Source of the DNA: Acidobacteriota bacterium
GTDB taxonomy: Bacteria; Patescibacteriota; Saccharimonadia; Saccharimonadales; Saccharimonadaceae
Direction: 5' to 3'
DNA: 47,121 nucleotides
Assembly: GCA_050258575.1 (NCBI GenBank)
Contig: JBLMYZ010000047.1
Span: forward strand, 1 to 47,121
Shown here: positions 1 through 11,943 of the stretch, piece after piece
How the letters are laid out: every line of letters begins with the position of its first letter
Numbering within the stretch: position 1 is the first letter of the stretch
The notes under the pieces: model-generated
Database searches by the model: none
The model's input: the letters and a program-made list of their open reading frames with translations, nothing else
What the model was told of the DNA's origin: nothing
Position numbers and translations under genes: made by a program

Positions 1-110
1 AAAAAAGCAAAGGGGACGGCTGGTGGTGGCGCGTCTAGCTCTGCTGGACAGGCGGCGCGGCTCAGATTACGCTTTTGTGCTAAAATGGGTTCTAGCGAAT
101 CCAAAAAATC

Positions 111-252
111 GCTCCAAAATGGATTTTTCCGCGACTGAGTCGCCCTCACGGGCGGCTTTTTCTTTGGTTGCGCGGAGCGCCAGCCACGGGTTTTTCAGGG
201 GGGAGATTTGGGATTGCCATGCGCTGAAAGCGCATGATTTTTTATTTGTTAG
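111..252. repeat. Left arm of the imperfect inverted repeat (IR-L)
   Basis: Its reverse complement aligns with 1836-1974. Identical blocks include GCTCCAAAATGGA and TCGCCCTCACGGGCGGC; a near-identical block is AGCGCCAGCCACGGGTTTTTCAGGGGGGAGATTTG(G/A)GATTG. Two short blocks have diverged. Confidence 0.85.
218..250 (+). terminator. Intrinsic-terminator-like hairpin inside IR-L
   Basis: CATGCGC-tgaaa-GCGCATG (218-236) followed by ATTTTTTATTTGTT. Confidence 0.6.
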
Positions 253-288
253 AGCGGCTAAAGCCGCTACACTCCGTGTGCCTCACCG

Positions 289-297
289 TGATATACT
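289..297 (+). promoter_or_regulatory. Extended -10 element (TGaTATACT), candidate recombinase promoter
   Basis: TG at 289-290 and TATACT at 292-297, about 135 nt upstream of the ATG at 432. Confidence 0.35.
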
Positions 298-304
298 GGC
301 AAGT

Positions 305-392
305 GGAATACAAATCAATCGGCAAGACTTTTACTATTTGACCACTCAAATAGCCGTTTCGCACAACTCGGGTTTTGCCTGATTTGTATTCC
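305..392 (+). repeat. Perfect 13-bp inverted repeat with a nested hairpin in the recombinase 5' region
   Basis: GGAATACAAATCA (305-317) pairs with TGATTTGTATTCC (380-392). The pairing extends through ATCGGCAA / TTGCC-t-GAT. An inner hairpin TATTTGA-ccac-TCAAATA lies at 335-352. Confidence 0.8.
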
Positions 393-431
393 AGCGAAGC
401 GGCTTTTTGAGTGCAAGCAAAGGCGGTATAT

Positions 432-2033
432 ATGTTGCCTCGGCTCATCTATTTTTTGTACGTTCGTAAGTCTACGGACGTAGAGGACAAGCAGGTTTTA
501 TCTATTGCGGCGCAAATCGCCGAACTCAAAGAGTTTGCGGCTCGCATGGGCATATATATTGTTGATGTCATTATAGAAAAAGAAACTGCCAAAAAGCCAG
601 GGCGCAAGAAATTTAATAAAATGCTGGAGCGCATAGAAAACGGCGAGGCGAACGGCATTTTGGCATGGATGCCTGACCGACTATCTCGTAACAGCATAGA
701 TAGCGGCAAAATCATCTATATGCTGGACGAGCAGGTACTACTAGACCTCAAGTTTCCGCACTTTTGGTTTGAGAATACACCGCAAGGCAAATATATGCTG
801 GCAAATGAGTTCAATTCATCTAAACAGTATGTAGATAATTTATCGGTGAACACCAAGCGGGGCTTGCGCGAAAAGGTGCGTCGTGGCGAATACCCAAGCA
901 ACGCACCGCTAGGCTACTACAACGACAAGCGCAACAAAACGATAAAGGTAGACAAGCGACAAGCTCCGCTTGTCGTGGGTGCATTTGAGCTATATGCAAA
1001 GAATGAGAGTAGATTTGCGGACATTGCCAAGTATCTTTACGCCAACGGCGTAAAGACCCGAGGCGGCAAGATATATACAACTGAGAAAGTAAAGCATGTG
1101 CTAACTAATCCGTTTTACTACGGACATTTTGTGTATACTGGCGAAGTGCATGAGGGCAAGCATACGCCGCTTATCTCGAAAAAGTTGTTTGACCGAGTGC
1201 AAGCGGTGGTAGCGCAACGGTGTTTTCGAGAGCAAGACCATAGCCGAGAGCCTGCGCCGTATTGCGGACTACTGAAATGCTCGTGCGGTATGATGATTAC
1301 CGCAGAGAACAAGACAAAGCGGCAGAAAAACGGCAATGTGCATAATTATGTGTATTACCGTTGCACTCGCAAGAGCAAAACAGTTGCTTGTGTTGAAAAA
1401 CCTGTGCGGAGCGAACCGCTAGATAGTGAATTGTCTGTATTGCTGGCGCAATTTGCCCTGCCTGACGGCTGGGGCGACTGGTTGCGCCAACGTATAAACG
1501 AAGCGGAACAAAAAGAGCAAACCGAAAGCGGCGTGGCAATGAACGACCTACAAGACGAACTGGCACACCTGTCGGGGAAATTGCAAAGACTTCTTGATAG
1601 TTACCTAGACGAAGTGATAGAGCGCGACGTATACCTTGCCAAGAAGGCCGAGATAATGAGCGAAAAGAAGTCTTTAGAAGAACAAATGAGCGACGTTGCA
1701 GCTGGACAAAGTCGGTGGGTTGAACCTATGAGAATATGGCTGGAAAAGGCGGTTTCTCTCTGTTCTGTCGCTCATGCTGACGACTTCGGCGCAAAAAAGA
1801 GGCTTTTGCGAGAAATCTTTGGGTTGAACCTGTTTTTAACAAACAAAAAAGTCGCCACGAGTGGCGACCAATCTCAAATCTCCCCCCTGAAAAACCCGTG
1901 GCTGGCGCTGCGCGCCGCCACGCAAAAGGCCGCCCGTGAGGGCGACCAAATCGCAATTTTGTCCATTTTGGAGCCCCAAACGGGATTTGAACCCGTGACC
2001 TCATCCTTACCATGGATGCGCTCTACCAACTGA
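432..2033 (+). CDS. Large serine recombinase (resolvase catalytic domain, recombinase domain, Zn-ribbon, coiled coil)
   Basis: N-terminal YVRKSTDVEDKQ (catalytic Ser) and DRLSRN; recombinase domain PLGYY...NPFYYG; Cys cluster CGLLKCSCG...YYRCTRK; heptad-rich C-terminal part. I chose the ATG at 432; the ORF track begins at a GTG at 411. The ORF only stops at 2031-2033, inside the antisense of tRNA-Thr. Confidence 0.9.
   Translation: MLPRLIYFLYVRKSTDVEDKQVLSIAAQIAELKEFAARMGIYIVDVIIEKETAKKPGRKKFNKMLERIENGEANGILAWMPDRLSRNSIDSGKIIYMLDEQVLLDLKFPHFWFENTPQGKYMLANEFNSSKQYVDNLSVNTKRGLREKVRRGEYPSNAPLGYYNDKRNKTIKVDKRQAPLVVGAFELYAKNESRFADIAKYLYANGVKTRGGKIYTTEKVKHVLTNPFYYGHFVYTGEVHEGKHTPLISKKLFDRVQAVVAQRCFREQDHSREPAPYCGLLKCSCGMMITAENKTKRQKNGNVHNYVYYRCTRKSKTVACVEKPVRSEPLDSELSVLLAQFALPDGWGDWLRQRINEAEQKEQTESGVAMNDLQDELAHLSGKLQRLLDSYLDEVIERDVYLAKKAEIMSEKKSLEEQMSDVAAGQSRWVEPMRIWLEKAVSLCSVAHADDFGAKKRLLREIFGLNLFLTNKKVATSGDQSQISPLKNPWLALRAATQKAAREGDQIAILSILEPQTGFEPVTSSLPWMRSTN
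1836..1868 (-). terminator. Intrinsic terminator downstream of tRNA-Thr(GGU), embedded antisense in the recombinase ORF
   Basis: Minus strand: GTCGCCA-ctcg-TGGCGAC (1868-1851) followed by TTTTTTGTTTGTT. Confidence 0.55.
1836..1974. repeat. Right arm of the inverted repeat (IR-R), which is the 3' end of the recombinase ORF
   Basis: See IR-L. Homology ends at ...TCCATTTTGGAGC (1962-1974), which overlaps the GCTCCA 3' end of tRNA-Thr. Confidence 0.85.
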
Positions 2034-2044
2034 GCTATCGGGGC
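1969..2044 (-). tRNA. tRNA-Thr (anticodon GGU), CCA encoded
   Basis: Hand-folded cloverleaf of 76 nt: acceptor GCCCCGA/TTGGGGC, D arm GCTC-AGTTGGTA-GAGC, anticodon arm CATCC-ATGGTAA-GGATG, T arm ACGGG-TTCAAAT-CCCGT, then T-CCA. Confidence 0.9.
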
Positions 2045-2088
2045 GCGCAGTGAGTATTTTAACAGATACCGAGTCTGGTTGTCGAGAG

Positions 2089-2690: not shown

Positions 2691-4528
<1,838 letters not shown>

Positions 4529-4534
4529 CTAGAC

Positions 4535-4563
4535 TTGACATAGCGCTCGTGCTTTAGTAGACT
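4535..4563 (+). promoter_or_regulatory. Sigma70-type promoter for the LysM-Rpf gene
   Basis: TTGACA (4535-4540), 17 nt, TAGACT (4558-4563). This leaves a leader of about 105 nt ending in GGGAGG-aaact-ATG. Confidence 0.55.
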
Positions 4564-4649
4564 AGTCCCTGCGTCTTTTGGCGAGGTAATGCGAATTGTA
4601 CGATTTTACCTCTGTTATCACCCGCCAGGCGCTATGAAATTGTCGATAA

Positions 4650-5309
<660 letters not shown>

Positions 5310-5331
5310 CCTGCAGCAAGCAACCCCTAAA

Positions 5332-5354
5332 CCCTGCCAATCGGCGGGGTTTTT
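5332..5354 (+). terminator. Intrinsic terminator after the LysM-Rpf gene
   Basis: CCCTGCC-aatc-GGCGGGG (one mismatch) followed by TTTTT. Confidence 0.6.
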
Positions 5355-5402
5355 GGTGGTTATTGTTGCTCCAACAACAGGAATCAGGTATACTGCTTAT
5401 GG

Positions 5403-7175
5403 ATGAAGTACCAGGTGAAAAAAGGGTTAGGGGCAACGCTAAAACGTGGTGGCGTTGAGTTTCGTGTCTGGGCGCCGTTTGCTCGTTCGGTGCATGTTGC
5501 CACGCCATATGTCCCCTTTCATACCGAAAACAAGCAGCAGATGAATCCCGAGAAAAACGGCTATTGGTCGTTGTTTGTACCAGATGTCGAGGCTGGACAG
5601 AGCTACAAATACCTCATCGAAACAGCAAATGGCGAGTGGCTCGAGCGCAATGACCCGCGGGCGCGTGTCTTGACCGACTCTGACCACGGCGCGTCTGTGG
5701 TTGTATCGAACGATTTTGAGTGGGGCGACGATCTGTTTATGCCGCTACCAAAAGAACGCCAGATCATTTACGAGCTTCACGTCGGTACGTTTAACCGGCC
5801 AGATCCGGCAACGCCAGGAACTTTCGCTGATGTTGTTGACAAACTTGACTACCTGCGCGATCTCGGCGTAACAACAATCGAACTCATGCCAGTTACGAGC
5901 ATGGCTGCCAACTCAAATGGCTGGGGGTATGCTCCAAATAGCGTTTTCTCGGTCGAAGCTGCGTACGGCGGCCGGCATGGGCTCATGACGCTGGTGCGCG
6001 AAGCTCATACTCGAGGCATAGGTGTGATTGCTGACCTTGTATATAACCACTTTGGGTCGGGTGATCTCTGGCGATTTGATGGTTGGTACGAACAAGACGG
6101 CGGCGGCATCTACTTTTACAACGACCGGCGCGGTGCAACGCCATGGGGGGCGCGTCCAGACTACGGACGACCAGAGGTTCGGCAATATTTCCTTGACAAT
6201 ATCGTCATGTGGTTTAACGAATATCGCCTCGATGGCATTCGTCTCGACGCGACTGCCTACATGCGCAACATCGAAGGCCATAACGACGACCCGGCGAACG
6301 ATATTGGCGATTCGTGGCAGCTGCTGCAAGATATTTCGCGGCTAGGCCATCATGTCCGACCTGGTGCGCTTATCGTAGCTGAGGACACTTCTGTGAACGA
6401 CTATATCACCCGCTCGGTTGACGAGGGCGGGTGCGGATTTGACGCCCAGTGGGGGCTCAATTATTCGCACGCTATCCGTACGCAAATGGGTCTGCCTGCG
6501 CCCTACCCGACCAGTCTCGAGGCCGAGCTACCCAAGATGTACAATGGTGCAACGTTCCAAAAGATTATTTTTAGCGACTCGCACGACACTGCGGCTAACG
6601 GTAACGCTCGACTGAACACCGAGATGACACCAGACAACCCAGAGAGTATCTGGGCTAGACGGCGTATGCTGCTCGCTGCGACCGCCGTGATGACAGGTAC
6701 GGGTATTCCTATGCTGCTGCAAGGCCAAGAGTTTATTCAGCACGGCGACTTTAACAGCTGGGAAGAGCTAGAATGGCAAAACGCTGAAAAGTTTGCCGGA
6801 ATTATTTTGGCGCATACGCACCTAACAGCGCTTCGTTTGAACGAACGCGGCGTGACCGCCGGACTGCTCGGCAACGGCGTGCATATATTTCACAACGACG
6901 TCACAAACAACGTACTCGCGTACCACCGGTGGGACAAAGGCGGTATTGGCGACGATGTGCTCGTGGTACTAAACTTTGGCGCAACGAAGTTTCCCGACTA
7001 CCAGTTTACGTTCCCAGTGAACGGCACGTACAGCGTCCAGTTCAACTCATCCGTCAAAGAATACGGTCATGACTTCCCCGAAGAAGAACTCACCGAGGTA
7101 ACGACAGATGCGAACGGGGTTGTCCATATGCCTCTTGCCTCGTATGGTGCTTATATTTTTTCCCGAAGCGCCTAA
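5403..7175 (+). CDS. GH13 alpha-glucan-active enzyme with an N-terminal CBM48-like domain (branching-enzyme or TreZ-like)
   Basis: VEFRVWAP..., YELHVGTF, GVTTIELMPV, DLVYNHFG, GIRLDATAYM, IVAEDTS, FSDSHD (GH13 regions I-IV). The exact specificity cannot be told from the sequence alone. Confidence 0.8.
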   Translation: MKYQVKKGLGATLKRGGVEFRVWAPFARSVHVATPYVPFHTENKQQMNPEKNGYWSLFVPDVEAGQSYKYLIETANGEWLERNDPRARVLTDSDHGASVVVSNDFEWGDDLFMPLPKERQIIYELHVGTFNRPDPATPGTFADVVDKLDYLRDLGVTTIELMPVTSMAANSNGWGYAPNSVFSVEAAYGGRHGLMTLVREAHTRGIGVIADLVYNHFGSGDLWRFDGWYEQDGGGIYFYNDRRGATPWGARPDYGRPEVRQYFLDNIVMWFNEYRLDGIRLDATAYMRNIEGHNDDPANDIGDSWQLLQDISRLGHHVRPGALIVAEDTSVNDYITRSVDEGGCGFDAQWGLNYSHAIRTQMGLPAPYPTSLEAELPKMYNGATFQKIIFSDSHDTAANGNARLNTEMTPDNPESIWARRRMLLAATAVMTGTGIPMLLQGQEFIQHGDFNSWEELEWQNAEKFAGIILAHTHLTALRLNERGVTAGLLGNGVHIFHNDVTNNVLAYHRWDKGGIGDDVLVVLNFGATKFPDYQFTFPVNGTYSVQFNSSVKEYGHDFPEEELTEVTTDANGVVHMPLASYGAYIFSRSA

Positions 7176-7194
7176 GCAACATCACCAAAACGTC

Positions 7195-7223
7195 TTCTCA
7201 GCCGTTAGCTCATCTGGTACAAT
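7195..7223 (+). promoter_or_regulatory. Promoter for the tRNA-Thr/tRNA-Tyr pair
   Basis: TTCTCA (7195-7200), 17 nt, TGgTACAAT (-10 at 7218-7223), about 20 nt upstream of the first tRNA. Confidence 0.5.
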
Positions 7224-7244
7224 ATGTGAGCACCTTTTGTTGAT

Positions 7245-7321
7245 GCCGATTTAGCTCAGCTGGTTAGAGCAGCTGTTTTGTAAACAGCAGGTCCTGGGTT
7301 CGAGTCCCTGAATCGGCTCCA
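7245..7321 (+). tRNA. tRNA-Thr (anticodon UGU), CCA encoded
   Basis: Acceptor GCCGATT/AATCGGC, anticodon arm GCTGT-TTTGTAA-ACAGC, T loop TTCGAGT. There is one U-U mismatch in the T stem. Confidence 0.88.
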
Positions 7322-7330
7322 TTTTAACAA

Positions 7331-7416
7331 GCTGGGATAGTGAAGCGGTCAAACACGACAGACTGTAAATCTGTTGGCTTTCGCCTTCGTAGGTTCGAAT
7401 CCTACTCCCAGCACCA
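7331..7416 (+). tRNA. tRNA-Tyr (anticodon GUA), long variable arm, CCA encoded
   Basis: Acceptor GCTGGGA/TCCCAGC, anticodon arm ACAGA-CTGTAAA-TCTGT, variable arm GGCTTTCGCC, T arm TAGG-TTCGAAT-CCTA. Confidence 0.9.
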
Positions 7417-7454
7417 ACTAAAAATAACCCTTTGCGGGTTGTTTTTAGTTGGTG
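7412..7454 (+). terminator. Long hairpin terminator that includes the 3' ACCA of tRNA-Tyr
   Basis: CACCAACTAAAAATAACCC-tttgc-GGGTTGTTTTTAGTTGGTG: 19 bp with one G-U. The inner stem is followed by a T-run. Confidence 0.7.
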
Positions 7455-7493
7455 CCATACAGGCCTCGTTATTTAATCGACCAAATCAGTAGC

Positions 7494-8547
7494 CTAGGAA
7501 ACAATAATATTTTGCGTGTTAGCCACCCAATCGTCAGAGTTGCCAATATTGCCTGCACTGCCAGCGGTATCACTGACTAAACTCTTTAGATTATCATGTG
7601 TGAACTTTCTGTTGGCTTCACGCATTTTTTTGAGTGTTTTTAGCAATTTGACAAACTGACCTATCGTGAGGGGCGCAATTTTCTGCTTACTTACTTTGTA
7701 GCCAACCGTATTTGCAATATGGAAAGTCTCGGCACTGTCAGTATGAATAGCCGGAGCGATAAAAATACAGTAGGCATTGTTATGCGAGTTCTCAAAATCT
7801 CTCAAGTGTCGCATAACTGGCTTCCCCTCGTTAAACCATTGATCACGACCACTTAACATCGTAGCCTCACAAATCATGTTGAAACTATCGTAAAAACACT
7901 CAATATCAGCCATACCGCCAGGAGCGGTCGACGTCGGTTCGTTGTCATCGCCAACTGGGTAATTTGGCTCAATCTCCTTCGCATCGTTCAATGCGTGGTG
8001 GCCCATTGTTGAAAGATATTCAAGCATTAGCACACGATTTTCAAAGTCGAAAATTTTTTCCAACTGCTCAATATATTGAAAGATGTTAGCTATTTTGTCT
8101 ATAGCGTAAATCAAAGATGTTAGTAAATACGATTTTTCTCTGGTGGTGATGATTATTTCTTCAAATAATTTTTCAATATCGTCCCTGATAATACCTATTT
8201 TTTGGCATTCTCTTTGTCGAAATATGTATCTGAAAAATTTTTGGAAAAATAGTTTTCACCATACCTCTTTACGTCAATATTATTGTAGTGCCTCAGGCAT
8301 TCTTTTAGCTTTTCTTCCCTGATATTCTCCTTGCCCAAATATGCAGAGTAGATGTGTGCGTTTGAGTTTAAATGTCGTTAACAATAATCTTCGAGCGGCC
8401 GTAATAGTGGTTAGCGACCGCGCCAGTTCCTGCAAAAATATCAGCGAAAGACTCAAGCTCGATCTGTTCTCTCTCAAGTATGCTATCGATAAATGTAAGT
8501 AGCTTTGTTTTAGACCCGAGGTAGCGCCGTTGGGTTATAGAAATCAT
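7494..8547 (-). pseudogene. Decayed restriction-modification remnant: the N-terminal half of a D12-class N6-adenine methyltransferase (two frameshifts) fused to the C-terminal part of a PD-(D/E)xK, AlwI-like restriction endonuclease
   Basis: From the ATG at 8547: MISITQRRYLGSKTKLLTFIDSIL...FADIFAGTGAVANHYYGRSKIIVNDI* (stop at 8368-8370). The sequence continues in another frame as NSNAHIYSAYLG...ENYFSKNFSDTYFDKENAKK* (stop at 8195-8197). It then continues as (I)GIIRDDIEKL...LLTSLIYAIDKIAN and runs without a DPPY motif into ...GGMADIECFYDSFNMICEATMLSGRDQWFNEGKPVMRHL... (ORF 7494-8114). Both frame breaks are 1-nt losses in homopolymers (T3 at about 8371-8373, A6 at 8198-8203). The region is conspicuously AT-rich. 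Confidence 0.65.
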
Positions 8548-8576
8548 TTTATTTCCAAAAAGTACAGTGTCGTTGG

Positions 8577-9233
8577 TTACATCACCACGCGGCGTGGCGG
8601 TTGGGCGATGCGTTTTGGGGCGCCGGACGGCACGGCCATAGACGAGGCTTTGGCTCGGAGATCGGCGGCGAGGTCGGGTTTGCCGGTGCGGTCGTAGGCG
8701 TCGGCAAGGATGGTTAGGCTCTGGGGATTTGGTTCAAGCTCGACGGCTTTTTCCAAAGCGGCGATCATTTTTTTGTTGTCGCCAAGTTTTTCCTGTACTT
8801 TGGCGTAAGCGACGTGCCGCGCGGCTAGGTTGCCCTCGAGCTGTATCGCCTGCTCAAACGCCAGGGCGGCTTTGTCATACGCGCCGGTTTCAAAGTAGAT
8901 CAAGCCAACGTTATGCAAGCTCGAAGCACTAGACTCAAGACTTTGAGCGATCTCGAAACATTCGATCGCGTCCTGGTACGCTCGCTGTTTGGCATACAAA
9001 ATACCTAGCCGGTTGTACGCAGTGGCGTTACGTTCGTCGACACGCAAGATAGTCAAGAGTGCCTTTTCTGCCCGCAGATATCGCTGGTCGTTGATACTTT
9101 CTTGTGCGACACCCCATAGTTTGTCCAGATACGACGACATCTTCGACGGCAGCTCGTTGCCCGCGTCGTCGATAGGACGCTGGTAGAGCAGTACCCAGAG
9201 ACCAAGCGCCATAAGAGTCAATAAACCTAGCAT
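8577..9233 (-). CDS. Membrane-anchored tetratricopeptide-repeat protein
   Basis: N-terminal TM helix (LLTLMALGLWVLLY) followed by several TPR-like 34-aa repeats (AYNRLGILYAKQRAYQDAIECFEIA, LHNVGLIYFETGAYDKAALAFEQAI...). Confidence 0.8.
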   Translation of the reverse strand: MLGLLTLMALGLWVLLYQRPIDDAGNELPSKMSSYLDKLWGVAQESINDQRYLRAEKALLTILRVDERNATAYNRLGILYAKQRAYQDAIECFEIAQSLESSASSLHNVGLIYFETGAYDKAALAFEQAIQLEGNLAARHVAYAKVQEKLGDNKKMIAALEKAVELEPNPQSLTILADAYDRTGKPDLAADLRAKASSMAVPSGAPKRIAQPPRRVVM

Positions 9234-9254
9234 ATCACCGACAATTATACCAGA

Positions 9255-10082
9255 TTATAGCCGTTCAGCCATAGCCATGAGCTGTGTCCGCACATGACCG
9301 TTATGCGCTAGGTTGTCGAGTGTCTGCTCGAGTACCTCAGCCGAGGCAACGAGCCGTTCGTTTGACGTGGATACTAGGCTAAAAGCAACGATCTGCGCGA
9401 GCGTTCGAACGAGTTGCTGCGCTGCACTGCGGTCGTTGTACGCAGCGAGCCGCACGAGGCGGTCGTACGGACTGCCGGACAATATAGCTCGGGCGTCAAC
9501 CACGAACTGCGACGACCGCGTAAATAACTCCTGGTCGTCGATGAGCCGATGTAGCTCTGCTGGTCTGCCGCTGGCTAAAAACATCAGCTGGCGAACAGTC
9601 GACTCGTCTACCACGCGCCGTGCACTCAGCAGCTGTTGTGTATCCTGGTCGTTTATAGGTCGTATATCGACCCCTTGCGTACGTGACAAAATCGTTGGTA
9701 GCACAAGCTGCAGCTGGTGGGTTGTCGCGATAAAATACGTCATATCGGTCGGTTCTTCGAGCAGCTTCAAAAACGCATTTTGCGCGTCGTGGCTCATAGC
9801 GTCGATATCGCCAACGATCACAACTTGTTTCGTCTGGCGAGCGTCGCGAGTAGTCACATAGAGCGACCGCACCGTCTCGATAGATATCGTTCCCGCATCG
9901 TCCGGTGTTACTGTGACGATATCCGTCGGGTGCGCCACGACTTCACGAGCCAGTGTCTGAGCGATAGTCCCGAGACCAACGCCGCGTACTCCGGACAGCA
10001 ACAAACCTTGCTGCGGCTGCCGCCGATACGCTTCGAGTAAGACTCGACTCGTTTTGTCGAGATACAACTCGTCGAAAGTCAT
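9255..10082 (-). CDS. holB: DNA polymerase III delta' subunit-like AAA+ clamp-loader protein
   Basis: GLLLSGVRGVGLGTIA (degenerate P-loop), VVIVGDIDAMSHDAQNAFLKLLEEP, LPTILSRTQ. The start was chosen at the ATG at 10082, which overlaps the rluD stop (ATGA). The ORF-track N-extension is rejected. Confidence 0.8.
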   Translation of the reverse strand: MTFDELYLDKTSRVLLEAYRRQPQQGLLLSGVRGVGLGTIAQTLAREVVAHPTDIVTVTPDDAGTISIETVRSLYVTTRDARQTKQVVIVGDIDAMSHDAQNAFLKLLEEPTDMTYFIATTHQLQLVLPTILSRTQGVDIRPINDQDTQQLLSARRVVDESTVRQLMFLASGRPAELHRLIDDQELFTRSSQFVVDARAILSGSPYDRLVRLAAYNDRSAAQQLVRTLAQIVAFSLVSTSNERLVASAEVLEQTLDNLAHNGHVRTQLMAMAERL

Positions 10083-10918
10083 GAAATCTCCTCGACGAGC
10101 TGCTGCATGTCGCTTGGCAATGGCGCTCGAAATGTCGTGCGTCGGCTGGGTGGAATAGTTATTTCCAGTTCGAGGGCATGCAAACAAAGCCGGTGAATTG
10201 GGCTTTTCGGGCCGCCATAGACGGTGTCGCCGACGATTGGACAGCCAATATATGCCATATGGACGCGAAGTTGGTGTGTCCGCCCGGTTTCGGGTCGCAG
10301 TTCGACGACGCTGTACTTCCCGTTGGCCGCCAATACTTTGTAGCGAGTAACGGCCGGTTTTCCTTTGGCGCCGACTCGAAACAAACTTGGCGTTTTCGGG
10401 TTGCGTTCGATCGGCAGGTCAAGCCTGGCCTCGTCTAGTTTCGGCCGGCCGCTTACCACTGCTAGGTACGTTTTGTGGGCTTTTCTGTCTTGAAATTGTT
10501 TCTGCAACAGCCGTTTGGTAGCGGCGTCTTTGGCGGCGATCAGTACGCCGCTCGTCATTCGGTCTAGCCGATGTACGATGCCTGGCCGGTTTGTGTCGTC
10601 TGGCTCGTTCATGCGCGGACGAACAAATTCGGCGACACTAAACTCTTCGGTCAGTGCGCCTTTGGCGTGCGTCAACACACCGCTCGGTTTGTCTACAACA
10701 ACCACGTGGTCGTCCTCATACACTACAGGTAGCGTGTCAGACGTGTCATACGCTACAGGTAGCGTACCGATCGTAATATCGTCGTCCTCACTCACTTCCC
10801 TGCGGCAAATGTACGCCGGGCAGTCGTTGACGTACACCAGCCCTAGTTCGATGTATTTTTGCCAGATCGCCCGCGAATGTTCCGGGTACTCTTCGGCCAT
10901 GTATTTGTCGAGTCTCAT
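10079..10918 (-). CDS. rluD: RluA-family 23S rRNA pseudouridine synthase (RluD-like) with an S4 domain
   Basis: MRLDKYM... S4 domain, HRLDRMTSGVLI catalytic motif, and a GRTHQLRVH-type motif. The start at 10918 overlaps the trpS stop (ATGA). Confidence 0.88.
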   Translation of the reverse strand: MRLDKYMAEEYPEHSRAIWQKYIELGLVYVNDCPAYICRREVSEDDDITIGTLPVAYDTSDTLPVVYEDDHVVVVDKPSGVLTHAKGALTEEFSVAEFVRPRMNEPDDTNRPGIVHRLDRMTSGVLIAAKDAATKRLLQKQFQDRKAHKTYLAVVSGRPKLDEARLDLPIERNPKTPSLFRVGAKGKPAVTRYKVLAANGKYSVVELRPETGRTHQLRVHMAYIGCPIVGDTVYGGPKSPIHRLCLHALELEITIPPSRRTTFRAPLPSDMQQLVEEIS

Positions 10919-11943
10919 ACCCGTAAACCGACGGCTTTTTGCACCCGTAACAGCGTATCGTTTGCGACCGCCGACATAGCCGCCTCGTTGGCGGTAAGTT
11001 TCGCCATGACGTCGTCGTCTGAAATATTGGCCAGTCGCGTTTGAAATGTCGCTAGAAAATCTTGTACTGCTTCGGCCACCGCGTTTTTCAGGTCGCCGTA
11101 ACGCGTCGTGCCTTCCCATTCGGCATTAACATGCGCCTGGTCGCGCTGAGTCAACAGGGCGAGCAGCTGTAGCAAGTTTGTCACACCGGGCTGGTTTTCC
11201 CAGTCAAAATGTACTTCGCCGAGACTGTCGGTAGTCGCGCTCATGATCTTTTTGGCGGCAACCGACGGCTCGTCACTCAGAAGTATTTTGGATTTTTCAT
11301 CGGTTGAGCTTTTGCTCATTTTTTTAGCCGGGTCGGTGAGATTGCGCACACGCAGGCCGTTGTCGCGCTGCAAAAACTTCATTTGGTCAGCCGTCGCAAC
11401 CGGTACGGTAAACAGCTCGCCAAACTTGTTGTTTATGCGTTCGGCGATGTCGCGCGTGATCTCGAGGTGCTGGAACTGGTCCTCGCCCACTGGCACATAC
11501 CGTGCGTTGTAGAGCAATATGTCGGCCGCCATGAGTACCGGGTAGTTCATCAGCCCCATCGTAACACTCGCGCCTGGCTCCGAAGACTTATCTTTAAACT
11601 GAATCATGCGCTGCATCTCGCCGACATATGTAAAACAGTCGAGAATCCACGTCATTTCGCTATGGGCAGGTATGTAACTCTGGCGATAAAGAAAAGTGTC
11701 TGGGTTGTCGATATCGAGCCCGGCAGCGATGAAATATTTGATATTTTGCAGGGTGTGCGCGTACAACGAATGGTGGTCAACTGGCGTCGTGAAGCTGTGC
11801 AGATCCGGCACAAACATGTTGATTTGGTACTCACCCGCGTAGCGTTGTTGCATTGCCACCATAGGAACGAACGCGCCCAGATAGTTTCCTAGTGTTGGCT
11901 CTTCGTTGCTGCGTATTCCCGTCAAAATCACTTCTTTGCTCAT
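10915..11943 (-). CDS. trpS: Tryptophan--tRNA ligase
   Basis: Class I signatures TLGNYLG (HIGH variant) and KMSKS, with the overall TrpS pattern (GEDQ.QH.E..RDIA.R.N). Confidence 0.93.
   Translation of the reverse strand: MSKEVILTGIRSNEEPTLGNYLGAFVPMVAMQQRYAGEYQINMFVPDLHSFTTPVDHHSLYAHTLQNIKYFIAAGLDIDNPDTFLYRQSYIPAHSEMTWILDCFTYVGEMQRMIQFKDKSSEPGASVTMGLMNYPVLMAADILLYNARYVPVGEDQFQHLEITRDIAERINNKFGELFTVPVATADQMKFLQRDNGLRVRNLTDPAKKMSKSSTDEKSKILLSDEPSVAAKKIMSATTDSLGEVHFDWENQPGVTNLLQLLALLTQRDQAHVNAEWEGTTRYGDLKNAVAEAVQDFLATFQTRLANISDDDVMAKLTANEAAMSAVANDTLLRVQKAVGLRV

Follow-up and report, generated by a model that had tools for sequence, protein, structure and literature searches.

Positions 1-2044 of a Saccharimonadaceae contig (JBLMYZ010000047.1 of assembly GCA_050258575.1, whose 47,121 nucleotides are hereafter referred to as the window) raise the question of why a recombinase gene runs on into the opposite strand of a tRNA gene, and why the 3' end of the same gene recurs in inverted orientation upstream of its start. 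We consider it highly probable that this stretch is the right end of a small integrative element, which carries a large serine recombinase and is inserted at the 3' CCA end of a tRNA-Thr(GGU) gene. An integrative element with a serine recombinase is of a known kind. The present one has several unusual design features, which are described below, and full-text searches of the literature retrieved no description of this element family.

A large serine recombinase gene that ends within a tRNA gene

Both ARAGORN and Rfam (69 bits) place an intact tRNA-Thr(GGU) gene with an encoded CCA end at positions 1969-2044 on the minus strand. The recombinase open reading frame (ORF) occupies 432-2033 on the plus strand (533 aa from the ATG at 432, with a GTG at 411 as an alternative start) and is free of stops up to 2033, i.e. 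for 65 nt into the antisense strand of the tRNA gene, which encodes the last 20 codons (1974-2033). These results confirm the read-through noted in a preliminary description made from the sequence alone. Domain searches matched Resolvase (PF00239, E = 4e-16, residues 8-153), Recombinase (PF07508, E = 2e-18) and, weakly, the Zn-ribbon family PF13408 (21.8 bits, under the 25.3-bit cut-off), which is precomputed for most homologues. These matches identify the product as a large serine recombinase. The catalytic R-x-S nucleophile motif is present (YVRKSTDVEDKQ), and R12, S14 and T15 are invariant among 25 homologues, as are the cysteines 278, 283, 285, 311 and 320. A structure model of low confidence (pLDDT 61) predicts long helices at residues 347-392 and 398-424. 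For the C-terminal DNA-binding (Recombinase/Zn-ribbon) region, the C-terminal domain of the A118 integrase was the only solved relative found in the PDB, the remaining matches being confined to the N-terminal resolvase domain. No database record was found for the protein of the window itself; more than 4400 database proteins, of about 530-550 aa, match it at E <= 1e-10.

The last ~45 codons before the tRNA recur in inverted orientation upstream of the gene, as the preliminary description had pointed out. The central 86 nt of this repeat (131-216 versus 1869-1954) are 87% identical, and the similarity extends to about 111-252 versus 1836-1974. Its BLAST bit score of 100 compares with 22.3 +/- 2.1 (maximum 28.8) in 100 dinucleotide shuffles. 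We refer to the two copies as armL (117-252, minus strand) and armR (1836-1968, plus strand, recombinase codons ~469-512). Their homology stops at a core, TGGAGC in the recombinase sense, at 1969-1974 on the right and at 111-116 on the left (GCTCCA on the plus strand), and in all relatives it likewise ends at the core. On the right, the core is the complement of tRNA positions 71-76 (acceptor 71-72, discriminator 73 and CCA 74-76) and the sequence continues as the tRNA; on the left it continues as a T-arm look-alike, in agreement with the earlier account. On the minus strand, the left copy remains an open frame from 282 to 67, and its translation ends in LTNKKSCAFSAWQSQISPLKNPWLALRATKEKAAREGDSVAEKSILERFFGFARTHFSTKA / SILERFFGFARTHFSTKA followed by a stop. 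The tail codons LERFFGFARTHFSTKA with this stop (67-117, minus strand) correspond to the native C-terminus that the recombinase would have when the attachment site is in its element form (attP). The left-copy ORF had no Pfam match, and the arms had no Rfam match, only tRNAs being matched. The rest of the window holds no further copies of the arms or of the left-hand continuation, and the left end of the element must therefore lie outside it.

Relatives reveal an element with three sites

We surveyed 159 related loci, of which 79 come from GTDB species-representative genomes (at least 573 matching loci, often several per genome) and 80 from metagenome contigs, where the same scan gave at least 582. 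Almost all of the labelled loci belong to Saccharibacteria or other Patescibacteria. The recombinase ORFs are intact across the 159 loci, with only the last 16 codons being swapped. An antisense tRNA lies at the 3' end of the recombinase gene in 117 of the 129 loci with enough 3' sequence, and these tRNAs represent 18 isotypes and 36 anticodons. In 102 of the 114 loci with enough 5' sequence, the gene end and a copy ~200-300 nt 5' of the start form an inverted repeat of 90 nt or more; 77 of the 102 repeats are at least 98% identical and 45 are 100% identical. The repeat always ends 4-6 nt inside the tRNA. Beyond the core, the upstream copy runs on as a segment termed P', which comprises the native tail and then 100-200 nt more.

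The preliminary description had considered the inverted partner as a possible relic of a second related element, once head-to-head with the present one. The arms of the window are only ~78-90% alike, armR resembles other elements' arms (88%) more than it does armL, and tandem arrays of different elements do exist. However, the occurrence of the same copy at the same place in 102 of 114 loci, usually at 98-100% identity in elements whose proteins are only ~50% identical, identifies it as a conserved part of the element. A relic is thereby refuted as a general explanation, and for the window we regard it as extremely improbable.

In 57 loci P' occurs again, as an inverted repeat 1-8 kb further upstream, and this third site is at least 99% identical to the second in 46 of the 57. 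The third-site P' adjoins flanking DNA that is not part of the element; 38 of 50 such flanks were scored as terminator-like, with clear native-looking hairpins in L017, L021, L029, L061 and others. From left to right, the complete element has the architecture [B-core-P'a>] cargo [<P'b-core-armL] recombinase> [armR-core-tRNA], and the 57 complete elements measure 2.9-10.3 kb (median 4.5 kb). The window covers the element from P'b rightwards only, the cargo and the left junction (attL) lying outside; neither these nor the third site had been noted in the preliminary description. P'b (1-110, minus strand) forms the outer half of S_int, the complete attP copy in inverted orientation, and it can be aligned to P' from L001, L007 and L017; position 1 falls inside it, so that the start of the window cuts it ~60 nt before the usual P' end.

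The recombinase is the only conserved gene of the element. The 150 cargo ORFs of the 57 elements encode DNA methyltransferases, restriction enzymes, a helicase-nuclease defence protein, NUDIX and glyoxalase proteins, ABC transporters and metabolic enzymes, and among them no replication, conjugation, capsid or excisionase family recurs.

One public contig of the survey, L004, ends at positions 1-60 in a Nextera adapter (CTGTCTCTTATACACATCT) inside the arm, which is an assembly contaminant.

Junctions and movement between tRNA genes

The junction at tRNA-Thr can be read by comparison with strain L097, whose tgt-DsbA-tRNA-Thr flank is ~99-100% identical to that of the window and which carries another arm and recombinase variant (with a P0026-like tail): the two sequences part exactly at TTGGAGC. 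The closest complete relative, L017 (91% identity), is located at tRNA-Lys, and in its attL the native terminator hairpin of the tRNA is followed by TTTGGAGC and then by P'. Comparison of attL, the internal copy and the right junction (attR) confines the crossover to TGG(A/T)G, and its position in the window would be within TGGAG, with tRNA-Thr as the B' half of the target. Only TGG(A/T)G(C) is common to the three sites, with exact boundaries in L007, L008, L013, L015, L017 and L134, and against L097. To judge from these sequences, attL and attR are hybrids that share a short core, as for recombination of attP with a target attB.

Sequence comparison also shows mobility between tRNA genes. Some recombinases whose bodies match perfectly over 512-516 aa end in the native tail (P0092, P0101), others in one of three different tRNA-encoded tails (P0087, P0086, P0095/P0093), and some of them are on contigs of 46-480 kb; the same enzyme must therefore recently have sat at several tRNAs. 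These identical bodies also bear out the earlier proposal that integration replaced a native tail of the ERFFGFARTHFSTKA type by tRNA-antisense codons. L015 and L016 share both the enzyme and the tRNA-Glu target, with cargo that differs between them. The 587-kb contig L134 holds a tandem array of two elements at tRNA-Leu(CAG) (4314-11630), in which the distal recombinase, rec_A (6667-8256), has a native tail whose codons are supplied by the P' of element B, the one proximal to the tRNA; the native-tail form is therefore real. The array suggests that an incoming element inserts at the tRNA end irrespective of the downstream sequence, and that the enzyme chiefly reads the tRNA half-site. As tandem arrays imply insertion into hybrid sites, they also hint at a relaxed selectivity.

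We therefore favour a model in which attP consists of arm, core and P', where the arm is formed by the last ~45 recombinase codons, the core is TGGAG, and P' comprises the 16 tail codons plus ~100-200 nt. Recombination of this site, presumably on a circular intermediate, with a tRNA end would join arm and core to the tRNA, so that the ORF would run into the tRNA antisense strand, and P' would shift to the far end of the element, which is left of the window. The earlier suggestion that the attachment site lies within the 3' end of the recombinase gene, and that its outer half mimics the tRNA 3' end, is supported by both the junctions in the relatives and the consensus of 93 unique P' copies, TGGTG-N3-TTTTAC-N6-GCTCGAACCTATTTT. 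In 61 of the 93 copies a T-loop-like GAACC lies at +24 from TGG, a motif that is read at +20 in tRNAs; P'b of the window has it within TAGAACC, with GAACC likewise at +24. For the LI integrase of the A118-type Listeria phage, the motif bound by the zinc-ribbon domain (ZD) is 5 bp nearer to the centre in attB than in attP (PMC3783163), and the 4-bp shift between P' and the tRNAs has the same direction. By analogy, this shift may mark attP-type as opposed to attB-type half-sites. P' imitates the tRNA half with its GAACC 4 bp further out, and the enzyme appears to read mainly the tRNA half of its target, namely the CCA, the acceptor and the T-loop, which would account for insertion at many different tRNAs and beside resident elements. 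No convincing dyad symmetry was found between the arm half and the P' half of the site.

Several smaller observations concern these sites and their neighbourhood. The distal part of P' has an inverted repeat of its own of ~18 nt (CCACCAGAAAAACCCTTT ... AAAGGGTGTTTCTGGTGG), with copies ~46 nt apart (L017, 5925-6011), in several loci, and one of its arms is present in window positions 1-40. At the inner edge of armR (1826-1836; columns 141-152 of alignment A4 in the relatives), the tRNA-sense strand reads AGGTTCAACCC or AGGTTCGACCC and is T-loop-like; in the recombinase sense this stretch is the invariant FG[LS]NL motif. A further large serine recombinase of 555 aa, distantly related to the first, is encoded by L017 at 4045-5712. 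It, too, continues into the antisense strand of a tRNA gene (Arg-TCG, 5600-5676), in an identical frame (TTG GTA), is devoid of inverted repeats, and is the immediate neighbour of the attL that belongs to the tRNA-Lys family member. Native tRNA terminators in these genomes are long hairpins that start within the ACCA end of the tRNA (window 7405-7460; attL flanks of L021, L029, L034, L061, L062, L074, L078 and L088), as exemplified by GCACCAACTAAAAATAACCC...GGGTTGTTTTTAGTTGGTGC after tRNA-Tyr. Many tRNAs therefore have an inverted copy of the core TTGGTG ~40 nt downstream.

The exchanged C-terminus of the recombinase

With its attachment site inside the gene, the element alters the C-terminus of the recombinase on integration. 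The preliminary description had named homologues that end before residue ~470 as an observation that would render the repeated region non-coding. The homologues do not end there: the best 120 of the more than 4400 homologues are mostly 520-600 aa long and cover 89-100% of the query, and 119 of them read through the arm, the exception being P0003 (486 aa). The homologue C-termini have in common the motif ...SP.K..W..LR....KA...GD.....S.L[EV], and S484, P485, W490, L493, R494 and A501 are invariant in an alignment of 25 sequences. Thereafter the homologues split into classes. Most tail classes are the antisense of various tRNAs (...EPRSGVEPETSSLPWMRSTN, ...GLEPGTPCLKGRCSNQLSY, ...RIELASLAWKAGILAIIRHP, ...GIEPGLPG and others). 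One class, [RA]F[YF]A.[VA]RT.F..K, is the same tail as that of the left copy in the window, and this native tail is the actual C-terminus in P0009, P0039, P0066, P0092, P0101 and others, as well as in rec_A of L134. Among the inverted copies of 80 unique loci, LVxFYxxARTYFxxKx followed by a stop, with a length of 14-17 aa (median 16), is the commonest form.

It might be argued that the extension of the ORF is fortuitous, and that the DNA past residue ~470 is merely an attachment site with terminators that happens to lack stops, or is translated without function. Indeed, the tRNA-encoded tails are arbitrary, and residues 460-533 are modelled with a pLDDT below 50. Moreover, constraints on the nucleic acid can account for much of the conservation: covarying hairpins alter amino acids (GGCGC/GCGCC versus GGTGC/GCACC), and the conserved FY...RTYF of the tail corresponds to DNA motifs of P', RTYF matching CGAACCTATTTT. 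However, reading through the arm is nearly universal among the best 120 homologues, the six invariant residues lie within it, and length differences between the hairpins of the two copies are 0 or 3 nt. Furthermore, the native tails mostly stop 14-17 codons past the core, and the variation between CGA and AGA codons in the tail preserves arginine, which makes a constraint on the tail at the protein level likely as well. We therefore consider a fortuitous extension to be quite improbable, and read the arm as coding sequence. The exchange of tails may conceivably affect the activity of the enzyme.

Terminators on the opposite strand of the arm

On the strand opposite to the recombinase codons, the arm carries covarying intrinsic terminators for the tRNA, which the preliminary description had not mentioned. 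In the window, two hairpins resembling intrinsic terminators follow the tRNA immediately on the minus strand (1947-1928 and 1869-1850), and two more lie within armL on the plus strand (137-158 and 218-236). In the tRNA sense, a GC-rich hairpin with a T-run starts 22-25 nt after the CCA in 65 of 70 loci, with 28 different stems, and a second terminator-like hairpin follows ~100 nt after the CCA in 60 of the 70. G.U pairs that are valid on the tRNA-sense strand only, being mismatches on the recombinase strand, occur in 54 of the 70 loci. The minimum free energy (MFE) is -50.3 kcal/mol for the tRNA-sense strand versus -40.4 kcal/mol for the recombinase strand, and the former is better in 67 of the 70 loci (p = 1e-12). 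In an alignment of 48 sequences, 88.5% of the cells of the two helices are paired, compared with 75.8% in shuffles (0/500) and 37-47% with slid partners, and 64 cells show double changes. Hairpin H1 was counted per sequence; RNAalifold missed it, its register differing between clades. The block in which the preliminary description saw the two translations diverge (VATSGD versus SCAFSAW) is one hairpin replaced by another.

From these data, it seems that the element supplies a new terminator to a tRNA whose own terminator was displaced by the insertion, and that inward-facing terminators flank the recombinase gene on both sides. The arm would thus be used three times, as recombinase codons, as the left flank of the attachment site, and as antisense terminators. 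Its two terminators would both replace the displaced one and protect the recombinase gene against read-through from the tRNA.

The inverted copy as a second attachment site

The two arms of an element have a median identity of 100%, compared with 66% between elements, and an element's own arm pair is the closest in 55 of 58 elements. This concerted evolution does not agree with the earlier view that the two copies diverged under coding constraint and are not a recent duplication: the copies of most relatives are 98-100% identical, and the window is a patchy outlier. The observations on which that view was based are nevertheless correct, as alignment showed the isolated single-base differences to be synonymous and the sole length difference to be 3 nt, within a hairpin. 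The differences between the arms of the window are clustered. An inner block of 47 nt with 2 mismatches, together with an identical H3 hairpin, lies between blocks that differ at nearly every base; outside of these two parts armL has been replaced, and one block is common to the arm of L097. The divergence is thus patchy and mosaic-like, not even. Serine recombination at the core is conservative and cannot homogenise the flanks, so that their homogenisation requires gene conversion or a stage of the life cycle.

In terms of its sequence, the inverted copy is a conserved second attP, and it may serve orientation choice, inversion or insulation. Positions 1-252 are such a complete site in inverted orientation between cargo and recombinase. 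An excised circle would then possess two equivalent sites, so that either orientation could integrate or the segment could invert, and the terminators of the second site would insulate the recombinase from transcription of the cargo. Inversion at the cores, should it occur, would involve 117-1968, and not 253-1835 as originally proposed.

An arrangement of this kind could also be a domesticated switch, in which the recombinase mainly flips its own gene segment and thereby toggles its C-terminus and the neighbour of the tRNA, the outcome being phase variation instead of mobility. Near-perfect inverted repeats flank the gene in the 102 loci mentioned above, armL retains both terminators so that either arm can serve the tRNA, and in L104 and L150 the order is tRNA, armL and a recombinase that points away from the tRNA. 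The arrangement of these two loci is suggestive, being the one expected from inversion or from integration at the second site. However, the ratio of orientations is 117 loci to 2, and the 2 could represent wrong paths through the repeat. Moreover, mobility is evident from identical enzymes at different tRNAs, varied cargo and tandem arrays, and the enzyme belongs to the large serine recombinases and not to the small invertases. We consider such a switch to be improbable. In addition, the cargo of L001 is opposite in orientation to that of L002 relative to the same enzyme. This flip and the two opposite loci are suggestive only, because perfect repeats of about k-mer length make assembly paths ambiguous. 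For the same reason the many ~2-kb contigs and the L001/L002 flip are not taken as evidence of inversion, as perfect inverted repeats break or misroute de Bruijn assemblies anyway.

A rather stronger competitor, albeit one that we still judge unlikely, is an inverted copy without any role in recombination. It would be an insulator of two or three inward-facing terminators 5' of the recombinase, whose identity with the gene end is maintained by RecA-dependent gene conversion, any flipping being incidental homologous recombination. The two armL hairpins are terminator-like on the strand that faces the recombinase, conservative serine recombination cannot bring about the concerted evolution of the arms, and the near-identical block beside diverged blocks in armL of the window could be a gene-conversion tract. 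It should also be noted that canonical large serine recombinases recombine only attP with attB, and not attP with attP (PMC3783163). On the other hand, an insulator has no need for a duplicated core and 170-270 nt of P' with exact boundaries, or for a tail ORF with a fixed length of 16 codons.

Several points weigh against the interpretation of the locus as the end of a mobile element with a doubled attP. A circular form was not observed, and terminal overlaps suggestive of a circle were found in none of the 80 metagenome loci. Of the comparison of related genomes at tRNA-Thr that had been envisaged in the preliminary description, the junction at the core could be established with L097, but look-ups via neighbouring host genes returned only this strain with its other variant and no unoccupied site; when displaced tRNA flanks were sought at other places in the loci, this likewise gave no empty site and led to the array in L134. 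The 150 cargo ORFs include neither a conserved excision factor nor a recurrent small gene. IMG/VR viral contigs contain no relatives, which leaves a phage origin unsupported. The opposite orientation is limited to 2 of the 159 loci, and these two contigs, the L001/L002 flip and the native-tail ORFs on ~2-kb contigs could all be path choices of the assembler; bubble-popping could also inflate identities of 97-99% to 100%. The arms of the window are an outlier (78% over 105 nt in a global alignment, 87-90% over the best 78-86 nt), and with diverged arms and with cargo and attL missing, this copy is possibly inactive. In view of the low pLDDT of residues 460-533, a protein-level role of the arm-encoded peptide and tail is a putative one. 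Lastly, an attP-attP role or an insertion into hybrid sites needs rules that are relaxed in comparison with the canonical selectivity (PMC3783163).

Comparison with known systems

The inferred circle with two long identical inverted repeats, each with a recombinase site, and two unique segments has the geometry of the yeast 2-micron plasmid, a flip-flop replicon in which identical inverted repeats bear the target of the tyrosine enzyme Flp. Our family differs by its serine enzyme, by the absence of replication genes or an origin from the cargo examined, and by the lack of circles among the 80 metagenome loci. In the integration-dependent immunity systems of mycobacteriophages BPs and Brujita, which use a tyrosine integrase, attP lies inside the repressor gene and integration removes a C-terminal degradation tag. 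The analogy drawn in the preliminary description is valid insofar as integration alters a protein C-terminus, but not with respect to the gene, which here is that of the recombinase itself instead of a repressor. The switches of the Hin, Gin and Cin type and the shufflons use a small serine invertase (or Rci) on short inverted sites, and both orientations occur in a population. Inverted sites flank the gene here, but the enzyme is a 533-aa large serine recombinase and, subject to the assembly caveat, the opposite orientation is seen in only 2 of 159 loci.

SSV1-type systems have a tRNA target and a tRNA-like stretch within the coding sequence, and we know of no inverted attP copy described for them. 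According to one account (PMC7253208), the SSV-type tyrosine integrases resemble our family in having attP inside the recombinase ORF, and integration splits their gene into two inactive pseudogene parts. In contrast, the present enzymes have serine domains, exchange only 16 codons, and have ORFs that are intact in hundreds of genomes, with neither partition nor inactivation. The serine integrases phiC31, Bxb1, A118/LI and SPbeta SprA, as well as the transposon enzymes TnpX and TndX, share with our family the domain set (Resolvase, Recombinase and, as a weak match here, a Zn-ribbon with long helices), the short core identity and the hybrid junctions, and also an element half-site motif that is displaced outward relative to that of the target (PMC3783163). 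Whereas they target one protein-coding gene, this family targets the CCA ends of many tRNA genes; its site is inside the ORF of the enzyme, only one target half seems to be specified, a second inverted full attP is present, the motif shift is 4 instead of 5 bp, and no excision factor was found among the 150 cargo ORFs. The tycheposons of Prochlorococcus are also small cargo-carrying elements at tRNA genes that form tandem arrays, but they mostly have tyrosine integrases (a large serine recombinase in 27 of 937), and many carry replication genes (bioRxiv 10.1101/2020.12.28.424599). The main text of that paper contains the term 'inverted repeat' once, in the reference list, and no inverted attP duplication under that term.

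Gene exchange in ultra-small, host-dependent bacteria with genomes of ~1 Mb is little understood. The abundance of the elements and their cargo of restriction-modification, defence, transport and metabolic genes suggest that they may be a major route for accessory genes in these bacteria. The family offers a serine integrase with a tRNA-end specificity across 36 anticodons, an attachment site within the enzyme's own coding sequence, DNA under the triple constraint of codons, site flank and antisense terminators, and a conserved doubled attP; a recombinase that reads one half-site could be of interest to genome engineers. More speculatively, and as a tentative proposal only, such two-module flip-flop elements might be the main vehicle of accessory genes in Saccharibacteria and other Patescibacteria. 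Generic recognition of the tRNA 3' end through one half-site (CCA, acceptor and T-loop) would open almost any CCA-encoding tRNA gene to them. The tail swap and the convergent transcription of the tRNA, stopped by terminators antisense to the recombinase codons, would sense the integration state and lock the orientation from recombinase to tRNA, and the second attP would serve orientation choice or inversion.

Other features of the window

The region between armL and the start codon (253-431, plus strand) comprises the leader and promoter region of the recombinase gene, with a hairpin at 253-268 and a perfect 14-nt inverted repeat (304-317/380-393) that surrounds the palindrome CTATTTGA-CCAC-TCAAATAG. 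Its RNA has an MFE of -70.4 kcal/mol, compared with -48.6 kcal/mol in shuffles (z = -4.7). Compensatory changes preserve the stem in L104, and immediately 5' of the stem there is a -10-like box. The region may act as a regulatory leader or bind a protein. Antisense to it, an ORF of 68 aa (242-448, minus strand) is conserved in L017 (9817-10017) and gave no match in Pfam; since the nucleotide sequence is conserved in any case, this ORF is unlikely to represent a gene. On the other side of the recombinase, a promoter-like site 5' of tRNA-Thr (2056-2085, minus strand, TCGACA-18-TAAAAT) is a consensus match only.

Further to the right, positions 7494-8500 have a low GC content (0.35-0.44) and lie beside tRNA-Tyr. 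Their content is limited to the C-terminal part of an AlwI-type restriction endonuclease (PF09491, E = 3e-42), which looks like a decayed restriction gene and is perhaps a remnant of another island. The tRNA genes of this region also differ in order from those of relatives, in which Thr(GGU), Tyr and Thr(UGU) are contiguous on the same strand (L008, 7628-8157; L100 and L101). In the window, Thr(GGU) (1969-2044) is 5.2 kb away from Thr(UGU)-Tyr (7245-7416) and inverted relative to them, an order that reads as a local rearrangement with its breakpoint at the tRNA genes.

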